Under the pieces are notes generated by a model that saw only the letters and a program-made list of their open reading frames with translations, ran no database searches and was not told where the DNA came from. Shown here piece by piece: positions 45,834 through 64,000 of a stretch of DNA of 64,000 nt. This stretch comes from Candidatus Scatovivens sp. (GTDB lineage: Bacteria; Bacillota; Clostridia; TANB77; CAG-508), in assembly GCA_045646345.1 (NCBI GenBank), contig JAZRKN010000011.1, positions 32,001-96,000 on the forward strand, given 5' to 3'. The translations under genes were made by a program, and so were the position numbers. How positions within the stretch are numbered: the first letter of the stretch is position 1; each line of letters opens with the position of its first letter.

Positions 45834-46886
45834 ATGATTACTGAAAAACGAGCATTACTACTGTCTTCCAGCAAACACATTTTGGAGTTCGTTAAGAACT
45901 TCGAGGCAATCAAGGTTATCGACTCTGTGAAGGAGATCGAGGATACCTGGCGCAAAAACAAAACGCCTATCTGCTTGAATTCTGTTTTTGAAGCAGAGCA
46001 GATGAATCTGCCGGAAGGTATTGATATTATTTTGTGGGTAGGGGAGGAATTTTTGTACGATCCTGAAAACTTTACGAGATTCTGCTACGAAAATGGTTTC
46101 GAATGCGGAGAATTTCGTACTGGCAAGGTCTACAATACCCACAAGGAGCGCTGCTTCCTGTGCGAGCTGGCACACCTGAAAGGTATGCCTAATTCCCTGG
46201 CTTATTACAACGAACATGTCGAAAAACCTGTGGATTGCATTATCTACGAGAGTCGGCTGTTTTATGTTGTATCAGAGTTGGGGGCAATTAAGCCTGGCTA
46301 TCTGATGATTGTGCCAAAGCAGCATATCTTATCTGTCGCACAGTTCCCTGAAGGATTTATGTCTGAGTATCATCAAGTTTGTGCTGATGTTGAGACAATC
46401 CTTAAAGGTGCGTACGGCAAAGATAAGGTTGTCGTGTTCTTTGAACACGGTTCTGGTCCTAGCGGAATGACATCTCATCCTAAGTCTATTGTACATGCTC
46501 ATACGCATGTTGTAGTAGATTTTCAGATTGAACCGAAGTATTTGGAACAGGTTCAGATGAAAAAGGTCGATAATATTTCCGTGGCCAAAAATGATCACTA
46601 TTTTTCTTACCAGGAATCTTCTGTCGGAGAACTGCTTGTATGTATGGACCCTGAAGTATACGTACAGCGTCAGTATCCGAGACAGATTATGGCAAAGGAA
46701 TATGGATTGGCGCCGGGACAGTATAACTGGCGTAACGTAGCGTTTTCCGAAAATGTCGATGCTCAGCTGTATAACATTTTTAGATATCTGACGTCTGAAG
46801 AGGAAACTATCAATGAGAGAATTCTTGACAGAACTGAAGGTTTCGTAACTGGTTATGCAGCAAGAGATGACTTTCCAAGTGTGTAA
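45834..46886 (+). CDS. HIT-superfamily (Cwf19/CwfJ-like) nucleotide hydrolase with extra N-terminal domain; atypical codon usage
   Basis: CFLC; GYLMIVPKQH; VVFFEHG; HAHTH triad; RQYPRQIMA...YNWR; frequent CTG, CGT, AAG and GAG codons unlike the neighbours. Confidence 0.75.
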   Translation: MITEKRALLLSSSKHILEFVKNFEAIKVIDSVKEIEDTWRKNKTPICLNSVFEAEQMNLPEGIDIILWVGEEFLYDPENFTRFCYENGFECGEFRTGKVYNTHKERCFLCELAHLKGMPNSLAYYNEHVEKPVDCIIYESRLFYVVSELGAIKPGYLMIVPKQHILSVAQFPEGFMSEYHQVCADVETILKGAYGKDKVVVFFEHGSGPSGMTSHPKSIVHAHTHVVVDFQIEPKYLEQVQMKKVDNISVAKNDHYFSYQESSVGELLVCMDPEVYVQRQYPRQIMAKEYGLAPGQYNWRNVAFSENVDAQLYNIFRYLTSEEETINERILDRTEGFVTGYAARDDFPSV

Positions 46887-47038: not shown

Positions 47039-48193
47039 ATGAAAGATGAAATAAAATTACCAAATTATGAACATTGTATATTAAATACAATAACATCAGT
47101 ATTAAAATATTATAATGTTGAAACAAATCACAAATCATTAGAGGTTTTAGATAAAAAATTAGAAAAAAAATATAAAAATATAATCTTTTTAGTGTTAGAT
47201 GGTATGGGAGAACATATATTAAATAAATTATCTCCAGATGGATTCTTTTCAAGCAAAAAAGCTGATTGTGTAACATCTGTATATCCATCAACAACAACTG
47301 CAGCATTAACAACATATTATGCAGGAAAACCACCATATGAAACAGGATGGATTGCATGGTCTCAATATTTTAAAGAATATGGAAGAGCATTAGATATGCT
47401 ATCTCACAAAGAATCTTATTATAGAGAATCATTAAGAAAACCAAATTTAGATGTATTTGCAAAAGTAGTAAATTATGAAACAATCTTTGAAAGAATTGAA
47501 AAAGCATCACCAAATGTTAAAGCATATGAATTAGTTCCTTCATACTCAGATAAAAGATCAAAAAGAACTTACAGAGCAGATACTTTAGATGAAATAATAG
47601 ATGCAATTCATGACTTGACAAATTCAACTGGAGAAAGATTTATCTTTGGATATTGCGATAATCCAGATGCAACACTTCATAAATTTGGAGCATATTCAGA
47701 TGAGGCAAAAGAGTTTATTTTATCTGCAGAAGAAAAAATACAAAAAATGTGTGAAGAATTATCAGAGGATACATTAGTAATTATTTCAGCAGATCATGGA
47801 CATAAAGATATAGAAAAAGCATATACATTATTAGATTATCCAGAAATATTAGATTGTTTAATTATGCCAGCATCATTAGAATCTAGAGTTGTTGGATTCT
47901 GGGTAAAAGAAGAAATGAGAGAAGAATTTGTAGAAAGATTTAATAATGTTTTTGGTGAAGAATTCTGGTTAATGACAAGAGAAGAATTTTTAGAAAAGAA
48001 CTTTTTAGGTTTCGGAGAAAAGCATAAAAAGATTGATGAATTTATTGGAAATTATATTGCACTTTCAACTGGTGGAAGTATTATTAGATTAGAAACATTT
48101 TTAGTAGAAGGGAAACCAGTGAAAAAATCAACACACTGTGGTTTATCTAAAGAAGAAATGGAAGTACCAGTACTTATAATTTCAAAAGACTAA
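47039..48193 (+). CDS. Alkaline phosphatase superfamily, type I phosphodiesterase / nucleotide pyrophosphatase
   Basis: FLVLDGMG, TSVYPSTT nucleophile motif, PDATLHKFG, ISADHGH, THCG; no signal peptide. Confidence 0.85.
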   Translation: MKDEIKLPNYEHCILNTITSVLKYYNVETNHKSLEVLDKKLEKKYKNIIFLVLDGMGEHILNKLSPDGFFSSKKADCVTSVYPSTTTAALTTYYAGKPPYETGWIAWSQYFKEYGRALDMLSHKESYYRESLRKPNLDVFAKVVNYETIFERIEKASPNVKAYELVPSYSDKRSKRTYRADTLDEIIDAIHDLTNSTGERFIFGYCDNPDATLHKFGAYSDEAKEFILSAEEKIQKMCEELSEDTLVIISADHGHKDIEKAYTLLDYPEILDCLIMPASLESRVVGFWVKEEMREEFVERFNNVFGEEFWLMTREEFLEKNFLGFGEKHKKIDEFIGNYIALSTGGSIIRLETFLVEGKPVKKSTHCGLSKEEMEVPVLIISKD

Positions 48194-48935: not shown

Positions 48936-48962
48936 GACTCTAGAAATAGAGTCTTTTTTTTA
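48936..48962 (+). terminator. Intrinsic terminator
   Basis: gactcta-gaaa-tagagtc followed by a T run. Confidence 0.8.
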
Positions 48963-49084
48963 TAAAAAACTGATTTTACAAAAAGAATTATATGTTTACA
49001 TTTGTCTAAAGTATAAGTGGGGCTTTGCTTTACAGAAAAACGAAAATATGATATGATATTATAGGTAAAATTAGGAGTGATTTA

Positions 49085-50614
49085 ATGAGAAAAAGTATTT
49101 TTGATAAATTAGGAATTGATTTAAATTCATTAACAAAAGAAGAAAAAGGCTTTTTTAGAGGTTTTATAAATGAATATGGTAAAAATGTATATAAATACAA
49201 CAATCCAGTAACACAAAATTATTTCAACAATTTAATTGCTGCAATAATGCTTGAGTTTAATGGGGCATTTGAAAACTCTGATATAAGGACTTTATATAGA
49301 ATTAAATCTGCTAAAAGTGTAATAGATAAAATGCTTGAGTATTTTGGGAGAGATGATAAATTTATCTTAGAAGAAAATAATTTTGGAGAATTACAAAGGA
49401 GTTTAAAAGAAGATTTAAAAGATATGTTTGCTATGACAATAGTTGGTTGTAGTAGACCACCAATTTTATATTCAGATAATCCAGAAATTCAAGCTTTAAT
49501 AAAAGAACAAAATACAAATCATAGTATTTTAGCTGAAATGCAAAAATATAAATGTAGATTAACTGGTTCAGAATTTTCAAGTGGGAAAAAAAGCAGTTAT
49601 AAATTTGAAGGCAATAGAGACTTTGAAAGACTTTCAAAAGAAGAATACTATGTATATTGTATGAGTTTAATTGAAAGAATAAAATCATTGATAGATCCAA
49701 ACGCTAAAAAGTTACTAAAAAAATATGATGATATGTTAGATAGAATTAGAGAAAAAGTACCTGATTCTTTTACAAGTATTGCAGAACCATTTATTTTTGA
49801 AGATTCTATAGCTTATCCAAGAACAACATTTGATAAAAAACAAATTGTTTCTCAAATATCATCAAGCCGTATTTTAAAAATGGGAGATGACGCAAGAGAA
49901 CTAACAGAAATGAAACAGCCAATAAGTAAAGATGATGTAGAAGTAGTAGATTTTTTAGATTTAATTGATGATTTTTCGGCTAGGATTAATGACAAATTGG
50001 ATTTGCTAGTTCTTAGAAAACAAGTTGAAGCAACATTTGAAAATTCTGAATTATTAAAAAAATTTGGAGTAAGAATAAGTCCAAATAGTTTAAAGCAAAA
50101 AAGAACAGAAGATGGGTATGTTGCAGATTTTATATATATAGAAACACCTTTTGGAATAATTGAATTACAACTTCAAACGCAACATGAAAATCAAGAGGGA
50201 AGTTATGGATATGCTGCTCATGGTGATATGGAAGGTAAGAATTTAAAAGAATTTGATATTCCGGATTTAGAGAATGAAGCAGAACTAAAAGATTTTAGAA
50301 CTTGTGTAGAATTTGTTTCTGCCAAGAAATACATTGCTCAATTTGATAATGCTGAAAAAGCTCGTGTATTTATACAAGTTTTAGGTAAATATCAAAACTA
50401 TAAATCAATTATGACACAAGTTAAATCTGGATCTGAAGATGATAAAAGATTAACAGAATATTTTGCAAAACTATATAAATCAAGAAATGAGATATTCCCA
50501 GGAGAGGCAGAACAAGAAAGAATGGAATCTTTTATTTATTACGATATAGAAGAATATATGCAAAGTAAAGAATTTAAAAATATAGTAAATAGACAAAAAG
50601 AACAAGAGTTATAA
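49085..50614 (+). CDS. Divergent RelA/SpoT-type nucleotidyltransferase (synthetase domain only) with a large insertion
   Basis: RIKSAKSVIDK (aa72), DMFAMTIV (aa113), DGYVADF (aa343), IELQLQT (aa359), YGYAAH, in canonical order. Confidence 0.65.
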   Translation: MRKSIFDKLGIDLNSLTKEEKGFFRGFINEYGKNVYKYNNPVTQNYFNNLIAAIMLEFNGAFENSDIRTLYRIKSAKSVIDKMLEYFGRDDKFILEENNFGELQRSLKEDLKDMFAMTIVGCSRPPILYSDNPEIQALIKEQNTNHSILAEMQKYKCRLTGSEFSSGKKSSYKFEGNRDFERLSKEEYYVYCMSLIERIKSLIDPNAKKLLKKYDDMLDRIREKVPDSFTSIAEPFIFEDSIAYPRTTFDKKQIVSQISSSRILKMGDDARELTEMKQPISKDDVEVVDFLDLIDDFSARINDKLDLLVLRKQVEATFENSELLKKFGVRISPNSLKQKRTEDGYVADFIYIETPFGIIELQLQTQHENQEGSYGYAAHGDMEGKNLKEFDIPDLENEAELKDFRTCVEFVSAKKYIAQFDNAEKARVFIQVLGKYQNYKSIMTQVKSGSEDDKRLTEYFAKLYKSRNEIFPGEAEQERMESFIYYDIEEYMQSKEFKNIVNRQKEQEL

Positions 50615-50626
50615 ATACTTAGAAAT

Positions 50627-50655
50627 TTGACAATAACTAGGTTTAGTAGTATAAT
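50627..50655 (+). promoter_or_regulatory. SigA consensus promoter of gdpP
   Basis: TTGACA-17bp-TATAAT. Confidence 0.75.
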
Positions 50656-57969: not shown

Positions 57970-58079
57970 TAAAAAGGGGATTTTTTAAAATGTTTTATTA
58001 TATCTCAAAATGTTGTAAATACTCTGTTTGATAGATTTATTTTACTTTAAAATATTTTATAAAATTATATAATATTTCC

Positions 58080-58102
58080 ACTTTCGCCACTTTTTCGCCA
58101 CT
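58080..58102 (+). repeat. Putative integrase arm-type site (left)
   Basis: actttcgccactttttcgccact, identical to 63741-63763. Confidence 0.75.
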
Positions 58103-58155
58103 CGATAATACTATAAAAATGATAATTTGTTATACGACATTGATAGAGGAGTAAT

Positions 58156-58232
58156 AAAAAAAGTTACTAGGTCAAGGCTCCAATTGCCAAGGACTAGTAA
58201 CTCTGTAGATACAGTCGACAATGTATCTACAA
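58156..58232 (-). ncRNA. Putative ~76-nt two-hairpin sRNA
   Basis: Minus-strand promoter TTGAAT (58267-62) / TGtTATAAT (58246-38); perfect 10-bp stem 58204-58231; terminator stem agttactag/ctagtaact with T7. Confidence 0.6.
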
Positions 58233-58873
58233 GAAATATTATAACATATAATTATAATAAAATTCAATATATAAGTTTTATACCTACACTATAAAAAAAG
58301 AAGTTATCTTTGTTGAGAATGATATTAAATTAATATCGTTAAAATATCGTTCAAAAAAATTAAAAGACCTAGATATTTTTTTGAAAGTAGAATGATATAT
58401 ATTAATAGAATTGATTTATATTTGTTATATACCCCTAGGTATCTTGGATATATATAAACAATGAGAATCGGTGGAGAGGGATTCAAAAAACACACAGGTT
58501 ATTATATAACCCCCGTGTGATATGTCGTAAAAAGTCGAATAAAAAACAATACTCCGAAACTATAAAAAGAATTTAACTCGAGAGAAACACGAGAAAATGT
58601 GAATAAAAAAGAATTGCAAGAAAGTTGCGTGAGAAATGCAACGAAATGCAATTCAAAAAAATATATTTTAAACAACGAGTAAAGAAAATCGCGCAAAAAA
58701 AGACACAAAAAAGAATATTCCGACACTATAAAAAGAAAATGACAAAAATTGACATATAAAAAAAGAGGAAATCTATTCCTCTTCATTTTGTTTATATTAA
58801 TAACTTGATTACTTCTTTATAAAAAAATCTAGATTTGTTGATTTTAGATAGTTTTAGAAGTAAATAATTGATT

Positions 58874-59131
58874 TTATTTAATACTTCCAATAAGTAATGG
58901 TCTAGATAAAATAGAAGTTAATTTTTTCTTTTCATTAAATGGTATTTCCCAAGTTCCACCACTTATCATATTTTTAATAAAATATTTCTTGTTTGGCTCA
59001 CCTAATTTTGAAAGTAATTTATTATAAGTGTTTTTTCTACAAGTATATATTATTAATTTACTTTCAGAATAAGAGATATTTATATTTGTTTCTTGTTCTT
59101 CATATAATGTATCATATATTTTTTCTTTCAT
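58874..59131 (-). CDS. Small hypothetical protein of the element
   Basis: RBS gagg; 85-aa ORF in line with the leftward operon (EEQETNINI...IIYT). Confidence 0.7.
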   Translation of the reverse strand: MKEKIYDTLYEEQETNINISYSESKLIIYTCRKNTYNKLLSKLGEPNKKYFIKNMISGGTWEIPFNEKKKLTSILSRPLLIGSIK

Positions 59132-59187
59132 AATTTCCTCGATTCATAATTAAAATTATTTTGGCTATTAAATTTCTTTATATAACG

Positions 59188-59351
59188 TGTAAAGAATCTT
59201 TATAGTATAAATCAATAAATGTGTTTTTACTTATAAAGAAACTTTACAGTGTATTTTTTATAATTAAACTCATTTTTGTTCAAATATAAAGGATTATTCA
59301 ATTATTACATATTTTTTATATATTATTTAGACTGTAAAGAAATTTTACAGA
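59188..59351. repeat. Three imperfect palindromic 19-mers, putative origin iterons
   Basis: tgtaaagaatctttatagt (59188), tataaagaaactttacagt (59232), tgtaaagaaattttacaga (59333). Confidence 0.6.
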
Positions 59352-59383
59352 TATAATATATATTACCATACCTAGTTGGATTT

Positions 59384-59731
59384 TTATTCGCACCATTTAG
59401 AGAGGAATTTATATTTATTTTCAGTACGAGTGAAACGACCGTTTTCAATTACTTCAATAAAACCTTTTTTAGATAATTCTTTAATAGCTTTTTGAAATGT
59501 TGGTGTTGTTGTGAATGATTTATATATTCTAAAAGGGAATGTTGTTGTTATACTTCCATTTGAATAATCTAACATATAGATATATACAACTTTGGCTATT
59601 GAACTTAAGTCTAAAAAGTTCTTATGTGTTAATTGAGAATGATAGATTTGAACTAACTTTGTATTATTAGTTGGTGTATCTACTTTGCGGTCATATTTCC
59701 AAATAGGTTTTTGATATTTTTTTCTAGACAT
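59384..59731 (-). CDS. Winged-HTH protein, putative replication initiator
   Basis: RBS aggtggtg; FLDLSSIAKVVYIYM...TFQKAIKELSKKGFIEV...NKY, the pattern of HTH_36-like phage/plasmid initiators. Confidence 0.6.
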   Translation of the reverse strand: MSRKKYQKPIWKYDRKVDTPTNNTKLVQIYHSQLTHKNFLDLSSIAKVVYIYMLDYSNGSITTTFPFRIYKSFTTTPTFQKAIKELSKKGFIEVIENGRFTRTENKYKFLSKWCE

Positions 59732-59748
59732 AAAATACACCACCTATC

Positions 59749-59777
59749 TTGCAAAAATAATAATATTGTAGTAAAAT
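59749..59777 (+). promoter_or_regulatory. Counter-transcript promoter
   Basis: TTGCAA-17bp-TAAAAT pointing against the leftward operon. Confidence 0.65.
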
Positions 59778-59782
59778 AAATT

Positions 59783-59857
59783 CATATTCTTACTGAAGAG
59801 GCGATATGTAATATTTTCTTACACTCATTACATATTCTTACCTCTTCTCTTTTTTTA
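59783..59857 (+). ncRNA. Putative antisense RNA targeting the int, ant and rep translation starts
   Basis: Own promoter; stem gaagagg..atatgtaat / attacatat..cctcttc with T tract; 59817-59850 is the reverse complement of 62558-62591 at 33/34 nt. Confidence 0.7.
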
Positions 59858-59870
59858 TTTACTAACATTT

Positions 59871-60065
59871 CTAAATCCTTTCAGCTTGAATTATTAAATT
59901 GTTTGATGATTGAGAATACACCCAATTATCAATTAGTTCTTTGTTAAAAAATAATCGATTCCCGATTCTAAAATGGGGAAGTTGTTTCATTCTTACTAAT
60001 TTTCTTATACTTGAAATACTACAATGTAAATATTCAGATAATTCTTTAACATTAAATATTTGCAT
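59871..60065 (-). CDS. Excisionase-like HTH_17 protein
   Basis: FNVKELSEYLHCSISSIRKLVRMKQLPHFRIGNRLFF...IDNW. Confidence 0.85.
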   Translation of the reverse strand: MQIFNVKELSEYLHCSISSIRKLVRMKQLPHFRIGNRLFFNKELIDNWVYSQSSNNLIIQAERI

Positions 60066-60444
60066 TTATAACACCCTCTTCAATTAATTTTTTCTTAAAG
60101 TATTCATAACCTTTTAAAGTGATTTTTGTTTGTATTAATTCTCTGTTGTCATCTTTTGCATAATCAACTTTTAAATAAAAGAGTCCAATTCCTTTATTAG
60201 TAGAATATTGAGGGTGACAACGAATCTTTTTAACTGTTTTGGTTAAGTATATATAATTGTTTTCTAATAGATAAGTTTTAAAGTCTTGAAGTTTTATTCC
60301 TAATAAATTCGCACAGTCTCTAAAACTCATTGAAGTTCTTTCAAGTGATTCAATATCATTAAAATTTTTTTCTTTTGTATTTTTCTCCAGTAAATTATTA
60401 GCGATTACTAACGCTCTTGATAAAATTTCTTTTTCATTTTCCAT
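60052..60444 (-). CDS. Phage antirepressor KilA-C domain protein
   Basis: ILSRALVIAN...MSFRDCANLLG...YLLENNYI...GLFYLK...QTKITLKGYEYF. Confidence 0.8.
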   Translation of the reverse strand: MENEKEILSRALVIANNLLEKNTKEKNFNDIESLERTSMSFRDCANLLGIKLQDFKTYLLENNYIYLTKTVKKIRCHPQYSTNKGIGLFYLKVDYAKDDNRELIQTKITLKGYEYFKKKLIEEGVINANI

Positions 60445-60458
60445 ATTCTTACCTCTTC

Positions 60459-60635
60459 TTAATTTGATTTTTTTGATAATTCTGAAATTATTTTTAAGAC
60501 TTTTTCTTTTTCTTCTTCTGATAGTTTTTTTCTTAACTTCCTAGAGAAAGAAGTATCGGTTATACCAAGTTTTTCAGCTACTTGATATTTTTTTACGTGA
60601 TTACTTATACACGCGATTGTAATTTCATCATTCAT
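60459..60635 (-). CDS. Cro-like HTH protein, 58 aa (not in the ORF track)
   Basis: RBS gaggtg; MNDEITIACISNHVKKYQVAEKLGITDTSFSRKLRKKLSEEEKEKVLKIISELSKKSN*. Confidence 0.8.
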   Translation of the reverse strand: MNDEITIACISNHVKKYQVAEKLGITDTSFSRKLRKKLSEEEKEKVLKIISELSKKSN

Positions 60636-60684
60636 AGTATTTCACCTCATTTCATAGATTATAAAACTAAATACAGATAAGTTA

Positions 60685-60713
60685 TTGACATATTACTGTA
60701 TTTAATTTATAAT
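60685..60713 (+). promoter_or_regulatory. Rightward promoter of the element
   Basis: TTGACA-17bp-TATAAT, overlapped by inverted repeat taaatacag...ctgtattta. Confidence 0.75.
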
Positions 60714-60714
60714 G

Positions 60715-60743
60715 ATTATACTATGATAACAACAATTAATCAA
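60715..60743 (-). promoter_or_regulatory. Leftward promoter of the element
   Basis: TTGATT-17bp-TATAAT on the minus strand. Confidence 0.7.
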
Positions 60744-60820
60744 CAGAGAAGAACAATAAAATTATGACAAAAATACAATGAAAATAATAAACTTTATTGT
60801 ATTTAGAAAAGGTAATGAAT

Positions 60821-62221
60821 ATGTTTATAAATGAAAATAAGCCATATCTTTTTATATCAAATAATTTAGAAGTGTTTAATAATGATATGTTTGATATAAA
60901 ACAACAAATTGAATTGGTTGGAATTAATAAGAATAAAACTAAAGAATTAGGAACAATATGCGTTAAATTTTTAAATTTCTATGATGAACTAATTTTTATT
61001 TTAAATAGATGTGTTGAACTAACAGAAAAACCTTTTATAAGAATAGAAATGTTTTTACAGAAAAAAATAAATCTAGATAATAAGGAACTTATAGAACTTC
61101 TTTATAGAGAATTACATCAATATCATTCAAGAATATTAAATGAAATAATAAAATCTTCTGATGATTTAAAAATGTATGAAAAATGGTTAGTAGAATTAAA
61201 AAATGCATTAATTAATGATGAGTGTTACGAAACATATTACAATGAACAAATCAACGAAATACAACAATCTTTATTAAACAATAAAAAAATATATGAATCT
61301 GAAAAAATGGAAGAAGAGATAGATAAAGAATATTTAGAAGAATTAGAAAAACAGATAAAAGATGAAGAAAATTATTTAGAAGACTTTAAAAAAGTAAAAG
61401 AAGATAACAAAACAAGTAAAGATAGTATAAAAAATGAAATTAAAGATATAGAAAATAATATAGTAGAAGAAAAGAAAAAAATTAAAAAAACTGAAGAGGC
61501 TGATTTATTATTGAAAAAATATATTGAAAAAATGATAAATGATATTACAAATTATAAAAACTTTTTTGACTCTTCTTGTGGTTTTATGGATAAAAAAAAT
61601 TATAATGAAATTGATATAGATTATTTTGTGAAAATGTTTTCGAGTAAATTGATATTACCACAGACATATATTTATAAAGTATACGAAGAATATAATTTTA
61701 TTACACCAATTGATAGATTTATCTTTAATACAATTAAAAATAAATCAAAAAAAGATTTAAAAAGAAATACTCTAGAAGACTTGAAAAAAACACCAATAAC
61801 ATTAGCAAGAATTTTTGAAATAAATTCAGTGAAAGAAATTTTAGACATTTCTTTGAGTTTATTTGTTGAAAATAAATTTACTATAAAAAAATGCAAAAAT
61901 TGTGGGAAATATTTTATTCCTCATAATAAACAGGTATATTGTGATAATCAAAGTCCACAAAATCCAAATAAAACGTGTAAAAATCTTACAGATGATTTGA
62001 GAGATAACAAGAATCCAATATATGAAGTATATAGAAATAACTATAAAACTCAAAGCAATAAAAAAAGAAGAAATAAACATATTAAAACAATAGAAAACAA
62101 ATTCAATGAGTGGAATAAACGTGCAAGAGAAGAAATGGAAAAGTGTATATTAGGTGAAATGACTTTAGATGAATATAAACAATGGCATAAGAATAATCAA
62201 GACTGGATTAAAAAATTTTAA
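60821..62221 (+). CDS. DUF6076-like protein: coiled-coil middle and C-terminal Cys4 zinc finger
   Basis: RBS aaggt before ATG 60821; IKKCKNCGKYFIP...YCD..SPQNPNKTCK. Confidence 0.65.
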   Translation: MFINENKPYLFISNNLEVFNNDMFDIKQQIELVGINKNKTKELGTICVKFLNFYDELIFILNRCVELTEKPFIRIEMFLQKKINLDNKELIELLYRELHQYHSRILNEIIKSSDDLKMYEKWLVELKNALINDECYETYYNEQINEIQQSLLNNKKIYESEKMEEEIDKEYLEELEKQIKDEENYLEDFKKVKEDNKTSKDSIKNEIKDIENNIVEEKKKIKKTEEADLLLKKYIEKMINDITNYKNFFDSSCGFMDKKNYNEIDIDYFVKMFSSKLILPQTYIYKVYEEYNFITPIDRFIFNTIKNKSKKDLKRNTLEDLKKTPITLARIFEINSVKEILDISLSLFVENKFTIKKCKNCGKYFIPHNKQVYCDNQSPQNPNKTCKNLTDDLRDNKNPIYEVYRNNYKTQSNKKRRNKHIKTIENKFNEWNKRAREEMEKCILGEMTLDEYKQWHKNNQDWIKKF

Positions 62222-62240
62222 TATGAAAGGTGGTGAAAAT

Positions 62241-62396
62241 ATGGAAAATTCTACTGATATAATAAAAAAATGCTCAACAAAATATGGTTTTGCAGAAAAC
62301 GTTATTAATATTATGATGTATATTTCAAAACAAGCTGGATATAAGGAAGAAGAATTTGAAGATTTATTACAGAGCTATCTTGCGACAAAAAAATAG
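62241..62396 (+). CDS. Small hypothetical protein (51 aa)
   Basis: RBS aaggtggtg before ATG 62241. Confidence 0.6.
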   Translation: MENSTDIIKKCSTKYGFAENVINIMMYISKQAGYKEEEFEDLLQSYLATKK

Positions 62397-62410
62397 AAAG
62401 GAGATAAAAA

Positions 62411-62539
62411 ATGAAAGAAATTGATGAAAGATACAGAATATCAACAGAGGAAATTAATGAATATTTTAATGGGAGAAGAGAAACTACATATGAAGAATTT
62501 TATGCGTTTCTAGAATGGAGAGAAAATAAGAAAAAATAA
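62411..62539 (+). CDS. Small hypothetical protein (42 aa, not in the ORF track)
   Basis: RBS aaggag; MKEIDERYRISTEEINEYFNGRRETTYEEFYAFLEWRENKKK*. Confidence 0.55.
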   Translation: MKEIDERYRISTEEINEYFNGRRETTYEEFYAFLEWRENKKK

Positions 62540-62579
62540 GAGTGTAAGTAAGAATATAGAGAAGAGGTAAGAATATATA

Positions 62580-63707
62580 ATGAGTGTAAGAGAAATAGAA
62601 AGGAATAAGAAATACAAAATTGAAGTTGTAATTGGTTACAATGGAAATAAGAAGATAAGACATACAGAAGTGTTTTATGGTGGAAAAAAAGAGGCAACAT
62701 TAAGAGAAAACGAAATTAAAATAAGTAAGAAGAACAATAGTTATATAAGTAAAACAAAAATGACATTTAAGAATTTAATTGAAAAATGGTTGGAAAGTCA
62801 AAAAAATGTATGGTCACCGATAACATACAAATCAAATTCAATTTTGAGTAAAGTTGTAATTGATTATATTGGTCACATACCAGTTCAAAATTTAAATTCC
62901 GAAGTGTTAGAATCTTTTTATAATTCTTTAAGAAAAGATACAAATTATTCAGAGAATACTATACAACATTATTACACATTGATTAATTCTGTTTTAAATA
63001 AAGGTGTTGTATGGAATTATTTGATGAATAACCCAAATAAAAGAATTGAAAAACCAAAGTTTATTAAAAAAAGAATAGAATGTTATTCGCCTGAAGAGGT
63101 AGAAAAATTAATTGAAGTTTTAAATAATGAATCCCTAAAATATCAAGCTATTATAATGTTGACTTTAGATAGTGGCGCTAGAAGAGGAGAAATAACAGGT
63201 CTAACCTGGGAAGATATAAACCTTGAAGAAAAGACATTGTTTATAAATAAAAGTACACAATATGTAAAAGAAAAAGGAATATTTGAAAAAACACCAAAGA
63301 ATCAAACAAGTATAAGAAAGATTTATATTTCAGATTCAACAGTCGAGATACTGAAGAAATATAAAAAAGAACAATTAGAAAAGCGAATTAAGTTAGGGAA
63401 TAAATGGGGAAATAGTAAAAGAGTATTTACAACAGAAATGGGAAATGATATGCACCCAGATACACCAACAAAGATATTAGAAAAGATAATAAAAAGATAC
63501 AATTTAAAGAGGATTACTTTTCACGGATTAAGACATACATCAATATCATTACAAATAAGTAGAGGAATACAAGTTCAGATTATTAGTAAAAGAGCTGGTC
63601 ACTCTAATGTAACAGTAACACATAACACATATTCACATTTCTTTGAAGATGAATTTAAGGAAGTAGCTAATGTGATGAATGATATATTAAAAGTAAAAGC
63701 TAATTAA
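62580..63707 (+). CDS. int: Tyrosine integrase with N-terminal arm-binding domain
   Basis: SGARRGEITGLTW (R), KTPK (K), FHGLRHT (HxxR), RAGHS...TYSH (H, Y). Confidence 0.95.
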   Translation: MSVREIERNKKYKIEVVIGYNGNKKIRHTEVFYGGKKEATLRENEIKISKKNNSYISKTKMTFKNLIEKWLESQKNVWSPITYKSNSILSKVVIDYIGHIPVQNLNSEVLESFYNSLRKDTNYSENTIQHYYTLINSVLNKGVVWNYLMNNPNKRIEKPKFIKKRIECYSPEEVEKLIEVLNNESLKYQAIIMLTLDSGARRGEITGLTWEDINLEEKTLFINKSTQYVKEKGIFEKTPKNQTSIRKIYISDSTVEILKKYKKEQLEKRIKLGNKWGNSKRVFTTEMGNDMHPDTPTKILEKIIKRYNLKRITFHGLRHTSISLQISRGIQVQIISKRAGHSNVTVTHNTYSHFFEDEFKEVANVMNDILKVKAN

Positions 63708-63710
63708 AAC

Positions 63711-63740
63711 AAAAAGAAGAGGTTTTGTACCTCTTTTTTT
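63711..63740 (+). terminator. Integrase terminator
   Basis: aagagg-ttttgta-cctctt followed by a T run. Confidence 0.7.
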
Positions 63741-63763
63741 ACTTTCGCCACTTTTTCGCCACT
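63741..63763 (+). repeat. Putative integrase arm-type site (right)
   Basis: Identical to 58080-58102. Confidence 0.75.
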
Positions 63764-63811
63764 TTTCTTATAAAATAAAAAAATACCAAGTCACAAAATA
63801 CTTGATACTAC

Positions 63812-63887
63812 TGGTGCGCCATAGAGGACTTGAACCTCCGACCATTTGATTAAGAGTCAACTGCTCTACCAACTGAGCTAATGGCGC
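63812..63887 (-). tRNA. tRNA-Lys, anticodon CTT, encoded CCA
   Basis: GCGCCAT TA GCTC AGTTGGTA GAGC A GTTGA CTCTTAA TCAAA TGGTC GGAGG TTCAAGT CCTCT ATGGCGC ACCA, 76 nt cloverleaf. Confidence 0.97.
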
Positions 63888-63907
63888 ATATGAACTTGAC
63901 AATGACT

Positions 63908-63936
63908 ATTATAAAACAATGGTATTCTTTTGTCAA
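63908..63936 (-). promoter_or_regulatory. tRNA promoter
   Basis: TTGACA-17bp-TATAAT on the minus strand, 20 bp before the tRNA. Confidence 0.8.
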
Positions 63937-64000
63937 TAATAACTTAATAAAGAATATTTTATAAAAAATAGGGAATTTCTGTATAAAATTTGGTAATTGA

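Follow-up and report, generated by a model that had tools for sequence, protein, structure and literature searches.

A gene for a split synthetase-fold protein and its transcription context

Within the window, the whole 64,000-nt stretch of Candidatus Scatovivens sp. DNA that was analysed, an open reading frame on the forward strand at 49085..50614 encodes P0001, a protein of 509 aa to which modelling and structure searches assign a split RSH-synthetase fold. It is a real gene whose homologues are under purifying selection: for five close pairs dN/dS lay between 0.17 and 0.25, and a single distant pair, its synonymous sites near saturation, gave 0.45. A pseudogene was ruled out on the values of the five close pairs. 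A sequence artefact was ruled out as well, since contigs of two other studies (X2 and X3), among four runs compared, bridge the whole stretch in one piece without gaps.

The upstream Big_2 gene ends at a terminator-like hairpin of the intrinsic type, followed by a T-run (48936..48963, forward strand; one found compared with 0.3 expected in shuffled sequence). Two further forward-strand elements precede the ATG: a sigma-A-like promoter candidate with an extended TG (10/12; 49029..49057), a consensus match only, of a kind found at 18 sites compared with 13.2 expected, and a Shine-Dalgarno-like AGGAG (49073..49077), recognised from sequence 7 nt upstream of the start. Beyond the stop codon, a perfect sigma-A consensus (12/12; 50627..50655, forward strand) stands ahead of gdpP, identified by Pfam, and is a candidate promoter of the downstream gdpP-rplI-dnaB genes in their own right. 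Given the hairpin upstream, the candidate promoter and Shine-Dalgarno element, and the sigma-A consensus before gdpP, the P0001 gene is probably transcribed alone. The protein has no transmembrane or signal-like segment, its highest 19-residue hydropathy being 0.94 and internal, and the gene contains no CGG codon. Towards the end of the window (58000-64000), an AT-rich region that has lost strand skew carries small HTH-like ORFs after ftsH and ends near a tRNA-Lys; it is probably an integrated element.

Fold and active site of P0001

A first-pass annotation of this DNA had described a RelA/SpoT-type synthetase with its motifs in order, and these were found as described: RIKSAKSVIDK at residues 72-82, DMFAMT at 113-118, GYVADF at 344-349, ELQLQT at 360-365 and HGDMEGK at 379-385. 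The unusually long gap between the catalytic Asp and the GY motif was also confirmed. D113 and G344 lie 231 aa apart, compared with about 43 in the genome's own Rel, which leaves a net insert of about 188 aa; across the wider family, 98 of 100 rows have a spacing of 162-318, with a median of 185. Pfam gave no HD, TGS or ACT domain, in agreement with the same annotation. The proposed check against PF04607 came out only in part: it was the sole Pfam match, but it stayed sub-threshold (E 0.055; 14.2 bits against a cut-off of 27); the insert splits the model. NCBIfam gave no match to P0001, and family profiles matched RelSeq (1VJ7) at E 6.7e-4 and 5.8e-6.

The AlphaFold2 model of P0001 had a pLDDT of 87.9 and a pTM of 0.85, with residues 373-384 at low confidence. 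In a wide VIA structure search, Rel, RelP, SpoT, RelA and RelQ filled ranks 1-7 of 48,161 chains, at Z values (9.2-7.7) that sit only moderately above background; a Foldseek search with the whole model gave nothing at E ≤ 0.001, with 1VJ7 at rank 2. Superposition, which had also been proposed, aligned residues 31-194 of RelP (6EX0) with residues 24-383 of the model over 144 residues at 3.0 Å. As this alignment spans both sides of the insert, the two halves rebuild one synthetase domain. The RSH nucleotidyltransferase fold is thus present in the predicted structure, with RSH chains at the top ranks; the assignment is firm because structure matches agree with sequence profiles, and on the model we regard it as near certain. 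A Pol-beta-type nucleotidyltransferase was ruled out, since RSH chains outranked other nucleotidyltransferases in the structure search.

Residues 1-122 (49085..49450) form N-terminal helices and the first half of the synthetase core, and residues 303-385 (49991..50239) form the second half. Between them lies the helical insert (residues 123-302; 49451..49990), in which residues 227-280 are a variable lobe that is far shorter in most relatives. Folded alone, the insert was predicted to be a helical bundle (pLDDT 87.8); its best Z was 5.5, with no chain at Z ≥ 8 and no Foldseek match, which means that it has no kin among the chains searched, not that its fold is new. The first-pass annotation had omitted two further elements, a conserved alpha/beta C-terminal domain (residues 386-502; 50240..50590), matched in sequence only within the family, and a C-terminal tail, RQKEQEL (50591..50611), which is a weak example of a candidate translocation signal; in the six closest relatives the last two residues are ER or DR. 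Against PDB sequences, neither the insert profile nor that of the C-terminal domain gave anything under E 0.15, and the latter profile matched 18 short proteins that look like family fragments. In the ESM Atlas the top clusters scored 0.91 and two of them carried PF04607 (in 12% and 98% of members), a recognition that falls under the reliable level, and PHROGs gave scattered weak matches at most.

Active-site residues were mapped onto S. aureus RelP by motif register and HMM alignments, with no coordinates used. RelP R78, K80, S84, K88, D107, Y151, E174, Q176 and H190 are kept as R72, K74, S78, K82, D113, Y345, E360, Q362 and H379. Changed relative to RelP are R91 (to E85), R112 (to T118), K147 (to T341), N149 (to a variable residue at 343), H155 (to F349, in the motif that begins with G344) and R178 (to Q364). 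Over 100 diverse rows, with a mean column identity of 11% and relatives about 20% identical, R72 is kept in 98, K74 in 99, D113 in 99, E360 in 100, Q362 in 93, H379 in 100 and K385 in 95. The catalytic Asp and Glu are therefore retained as had been claimed, the residues for metal and triphosphate are near-invariant, and HxxYK, which had been listed as altered, is not really lost. Among 65 close rows, K337 is found in 62, K339 in 64 and R340 in all 65; position 345 in the G-loop is Tyr in 62 and Phe in three, position 341 is Thr in 61, position 118 is Thr in 57, position 85 is Glu or Asp in 53, and position 343 varies. K337, K339, R340, Q364 and K385 are newly near-invariant in the family.

In RelP, R112 stacks on the ATP adenine and R91 is a phosphate ligand in the donor site, as given in the available text of PMC5794853; the adenine is stacked by R95 in FaRel2, according to the accessible part of PMC11782079, and guanine-reading roles are ascribed to RelP K147 and N149 in PMC13710873. 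The earlier claim that the acceptor-site motifs are altered stands in so far as the guanine readers are changed. It does not stand for the DxxGxR Arg, which is a donor-site residue; the equivalent of the RelP R91 ligand is gone too (E85), and the acceptor-stacking Tyr is kept. The wider family is less uniform, with Lys at position 118 in 59 of 100 rows, K341 in 33 and N343 in 57, and the GYxSxH His replaced by Phe or Tyr in 84 and the EIQIRT Arg by Gln in 85. Since distant members commonly carry Lys at 118 and retain KxNG, the nucleotide pocket differs within the family, and some distant members may still read guanine. FaRel2 binds tRNA through a basic surface, as described in the available text of 10.1101/2024.07.05.602228. 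P0001 has no clearly net basic segment, so its composition lends no support to a surface of this type or to the tRNA-CCA acceptor that had been suggested.

Compared with long RSH enzymes of the Rel/RelA/SpoT kind (1VJ7, 24IO, 6YXA and 7OIW), P0001 shares the fold (Z 9.2-9.6), the RxK, D, GY, ExQ and AAH motifs and the 19 residues from Glu to His. It lacks their HD, TGS and ACT domains, has the 188-aa insert, a C-terminal domain of its own and a shorter G-loop without KDYI, and carries the R-to-T, H-to-F and R-to-Q changes. The E360-H379 spacing of 19 and the YGxAAH motif, both matching long Rel, suggest descent from the synthetase domain of long Rel. Like RelP and RelQ (6EWZ, 6EX0 and 5DED), it has a single synthetase domain; unlike them, it is more than twice as long, is patchily distributed and has changed the equivalents of R91, R112, K147, N149, H155 and R178. 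We put the chance that P0001 is catalytically active at about two in three; the loss of two donor-site Arg in its clade means that catalysis may be weak or missing. Keeping the metal ligands with both nucleotide pockets rebuilt makes P0001 a direct candidate for an alarmone chemistry, or an acceptor, not seen before.

Distribution, secretion system and possible function

Relatives numbered 74 in a word-indexed search, with identities of 33-99%; when 50% representatives were searched with a profile, 198 passed E ≤ 0.001, and 150 of these were among the matches listed. The named relatives are gut Clostridia MAGs. In CAG-508, the taxonomic family of the host, a wide profile matched in 18 of 150 genomes and a narrow one in 15 of 150, and two of four genomes of its genus had a member. 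The narrow profile matched none of 98 genomes from the other four families of the order, and none of 300 genomes were positive across the phylum. The P0001 family is therefore patchy and, among the genomes searched, confined to one family of small-genome gut Clostridia. Fold, profiles and motifs bear out the earlier view that it is a new, diverged subfamily of RSH synthetases, and we found no literature description of it; some members may be among the supplementary data of PMC12691689 or of surveys of RSH subfamilies.

As had been noted for P0001, no antitoxin lies next to it; over 26 loci the gene order changes, without any recurring small partner gene. Neighbouring genes change from clade to clade, and the loci are many, housekeeping and mostly non-mobile. 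Frequent neighbours of the relatives are nucleotide or tRNA genes, namely gdpP and ORFs that, from their sequence starts, we take to be guaA/guaB, U32-peptidase-like and methyltransferase-like. The host genome itself also encodes Rel, an enzyme resembling RelP, and an RSH of 556 aa whose motifs are canonical. The last (L003:673-2343 on contig C15) stands alone, has its own insert of about 115 aa, matches PF04607 at E 3.8e-13 and adjoins a U32-peptidase-like gene, a type of site also used by several distant members of the P0001 family. The host Rel (L001; C1:17532-19769) reads KKNMYQSIH, with Met replacing the usual Gly of the G-loop.

The order to which the host belongs, TANB77, is described as uncultured and with reduced genomes in the available part of PMC11680825. 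VirD4 was found in 147 of 151 genomes of the order and a T4SS pilin in 41 of 41, and gene content indicates that the order carries a core chromosomal T4SS. In the host genome, one locus (C14:133400-154100; L121 and L122) encodes seven tandem VirB2-like pilins, a VirB4-like ATPase and large uncharacterised membrane proteins, and virD4 lies elsewhere, flanked by a dnaJ-like gene and prfA (C11:129170-131230; L120). Relaxase PF03432, the sole relaxase family searched, had no match in this genome and was present in two of five genomes. The core T4SS, the tandem array of VirB2-like pilins and the small genomes resemble the chromosomal T4SS of Patescibacteria as presented in the accessible text of PMC12102498 and PMC12857230. 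In contrast to that system, the host here belongs to Clostridia, virD4 is unlinked, and epibiosis and cargo are hypothetical. We found no paper on the T4SS of the TANB77 order or on its cargo.

A possible connection to this system is the C-terminal tail. Past the last conserved motif the tails are of variable length (19-66 residues in 90 sequences), acidic, and end in Arg or in Glu and a hydrophobic residue (Glu-Leu). A terminal Arg was present in 72 of 162 sequences, close kin included, compared with 5.6% of 1418 host ORFs. One tail pattern was found in 26 of 94 cluster representatives and 32 of 1295 host ORFs (internal control 0/94), and two patterns together in 38 of 94 and 29 of 846 (internal control 1/94); these patterns are post hoc, one was framed with P0001 in view, and the kin are not independent. 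The tail of P0001 itself came no higher than 114th of 1295 when scored with the family matrix, and housekeeping proteins such as RpoB and an Lgt-like protein also scored high. Variable C-terminal tails are known from T4SS cargo, and the last six or seven positions are without acidic residues in the cargo covered by the available part of PMC8740702; tails of the P0001 family are alike in their variable length but are more acidic. The link between tail and T4SS is one that we infer from sequence. About 30 long proteins of the host genome share an acidic tail (L143-L162) and form a candidate effector set. Many top-scoring proteins are long and uncharacterised: among 20 chosen by eye from the top ranks, 11 have no Pfam match, and two helicases, a BadF-type kinase, an LRR protein and an integrase are found in the remainder.

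We hypothesize, with a probability of roughly 0.3, that P0001 is a secreted, self-restrained pyrophosphotransferase with (p)ppApp-like products, delivered by the T4SS into a contacted bacterium. R72, K74, S78 and K82 together with D113 and E360 would bind ATP-Mg, and Y345 with the basic K337/K339/R340 patch would hold a purine nucleotide acceptor, with a relaxed or an adenine preference, so that (p)ppApp would form, alone or mixed with (p)ppGpp. Lying beside the donor-site strand, the insert would keep the enzyme inactive inside the producer, and the lack of an immunity gene would thereby be explained. The VirD4 coupling complex would recognise the tail, and the most likely target would be a bacterium on which the small-genome producer lives or with which it competes. 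Patchy presence, many different loci and the lack of a transmembrane or signal-like segment are effector-like traits. The secretion system spans five families and the P0001 family was found in one, and the P0001 gene is not near the secretion locus; both points count against an effector. We place the odds of export by the T4SS a little under even.

Exported alarmone synthetases such as SaEAS (8VX3) and Apk1/Tas1 are the nearest precedent for such an effector; the accessible text of PMC12691689 describes some as lacking immunity genes and some as T4SS-linked. P0001 resembles them in its scattered loci, in the absence of an immunity gene from some of them, in fold (8VX3 at Z 7.7-8.2) and in a proposed action outside the producer. 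It differs in having a candidate C-terminal tail in place of a signal peptide, and Pfam gave no LXG, PAAR, MuF, XopAD or DUF4157 match. Were P0001 T4SS cargo, it would be the first class of effector from a gut order that is common and uncultured, would suggest how that order lives and would offer an explanation of why it resists culture.

The same catalytic conservation would be expected of a cytoplasmic accessory enzyme that is controlled by the insert and uses a non-canonical acceptor (an adenosine nucleotide, a tRNA end or another), its tail having some other role or none. The candidate promoter of its own among housekeeping genes, the frequent nucleotide or tRNA genes beside relatives and the lack of a link to the secretion locus are in keeping with this tentative alternative. 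It leaves the terminal-Arg tail unexplained and sits poorly with absence from most family genomes searched; in addition, neighbours change from clade to clade, and the relatives are not independent of one another. We regard as doubtful a pseudo-enzyme, or a scaffold for nucleotide binding, that would hold ATP-Mg or an alarmone without pyrophosphate transfer, inside the cell or after export, and act through the insert and C-terminal domain. It would account for the change of all six RelP equivalents (R91, R112, K147, N149, H155 and R178) in the clade and for an insert and C-terminal domain that are conserved and under selection. However, pseudo-enzymes usually lose their catalytic residues first, and D113, E360, R72, K74 and H379 persist at 98-100 of 100 in very distant members, with Q364 and K385 newly near-invariant.

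That P0001 is an ordinary (p)ppGpp synthetase derived from the Rel synthetase domain, with R340, K385 or insert residues compensating for the lost basic residues, we consider unlikely. The Rel-like E360-H379 spacing and YGxAAH motif, the retained Y345, the Lys at 118 in 59 of 100 rows and the KxNGY that persists in part of the family would fit such an enzyme; the genome has three other RSH synthetases, however, and the His of GYxSxH and Arg of EIQIRT are replaced in most rows, as given above. Least probable of all is a CapRel-type toxin, whether from an anti-phage or a toxin-antitoxin system, in which the insert or C-terminal domain would serve as fused antitoxin: the alignment with CapRel (7ZTB) is the longest, covering 182 residues at Z 7.2 and rmsd 5.0, the distribution is patchy, and toxSAS proteins (FaRel2, 8PU4, at Z 5.5, and CapRel) share the fold, the G-loop Tyr and the catalytic Asp and Glu, but P0001 has no antitoxin or other partner gene, no net basic segment and no equivalents of FaRel2 R77 and R95, occupies housekeeping, mostly non-mobile loci, and was not found in phage or defence libraries, with PADLOC matching 0 of 18 members and none of 308 pattern matches in viral contigs being a relative.

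A probable four-base CGG step and an extra tRNA-Gly

Five of the 26 homologue loci look split, with seven breaks, all of them +1 at an in-frame CGG before a conserved Gly; two loci that are fragmented throughout (L115 and L116) were excluded from the CGG counts. With X placed at the CGG step, L029 reads as a full 482-aa family member. In coding context in the host genome, CGG was in frame at one of 14 sites and strictly +1 at five of 14, and no other codon exceeded 2.1%; in other genomes it was in frame at four of 17 and +1 at five of 17, compared with 209 of 63,917. Read-through at CGG restores full ABC-F, CotH, GerA, ZIP and VirD4 domains. Among 20 split virD4 genes that were picked (L123-L142), the motif is visible in 19, and all 19 break at CGG on the Walker-A Gly. 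The gerA CGG site is bridged gap-free in three studies. These steps are located at L023, L024, L028, L029, L030 and L080 and in secA at L027, and in the host genome at C1:157798, C11:129668, C14:68387 and C16:6022.

The host genome carries an extra tRNA-Gly on the reverse strand (C1:228598-228671) with the anticodon loop CU-UCCG-A, in which G37 stands in place of A37 and which is complementary to CGGA; it has a Gly-type acceptor stem and U73. Of 28 genomes whose loci (L184-L213) were examined, 22 have this UCCG-loop tRNA-Gly, the 10 from the host's own family all among them, and six genomes had the standard loop only within the locus fetched. A U-C mismatch at 30-40 is present in 21 of the 22, in a stem that otherwise covaries. 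Nine genomes of one family (f2) gave no DNA match to it, and ARAGORN found no tRNA-Arg(CCG) or tRNA-Arg(UCG) in the host genome. It is probable, on this comparison of genes, that CGGN is decoded as Gly by a natural four-base step throughout the lineage, and the UCCG-loop tRNA-Gly is the likely decoder; RNA editing may be an alternative. The available text of PMC8629427 has CGG reassignments to Gln and Trp only, and we found no published report of a CGGN step in a search that reached few subscription papers. If confirmed, this would be natural genome-wide four-base decoding in bacteria, and many 'pseudogenes' in these genomes would be intact. This side finding may matter more than the P0001 gene itself.

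A wider conjecture joins the two lines, and we hold it only loosely: the order would live on other bacteria as Patescibacteria do and inject tail-tagged enzymes by its core T4SS, and the P0001 family would be a self-inhibited alarmone-type effector that rewires the nucleotide pool of the host cell through a non-canonical product, its mRNA, in common with much of that of the lineage, being readable with a four-base Gly step at CGG. Some CGG codons stay in frame, for example in the HIT gene of the window (45834-46886), which encodes a HIT-domain protein of 350 aa, has a raised GC content and was probably acquired; it is followed by a gene of the nucleotide-pyrophosphatase family (47039-48193).
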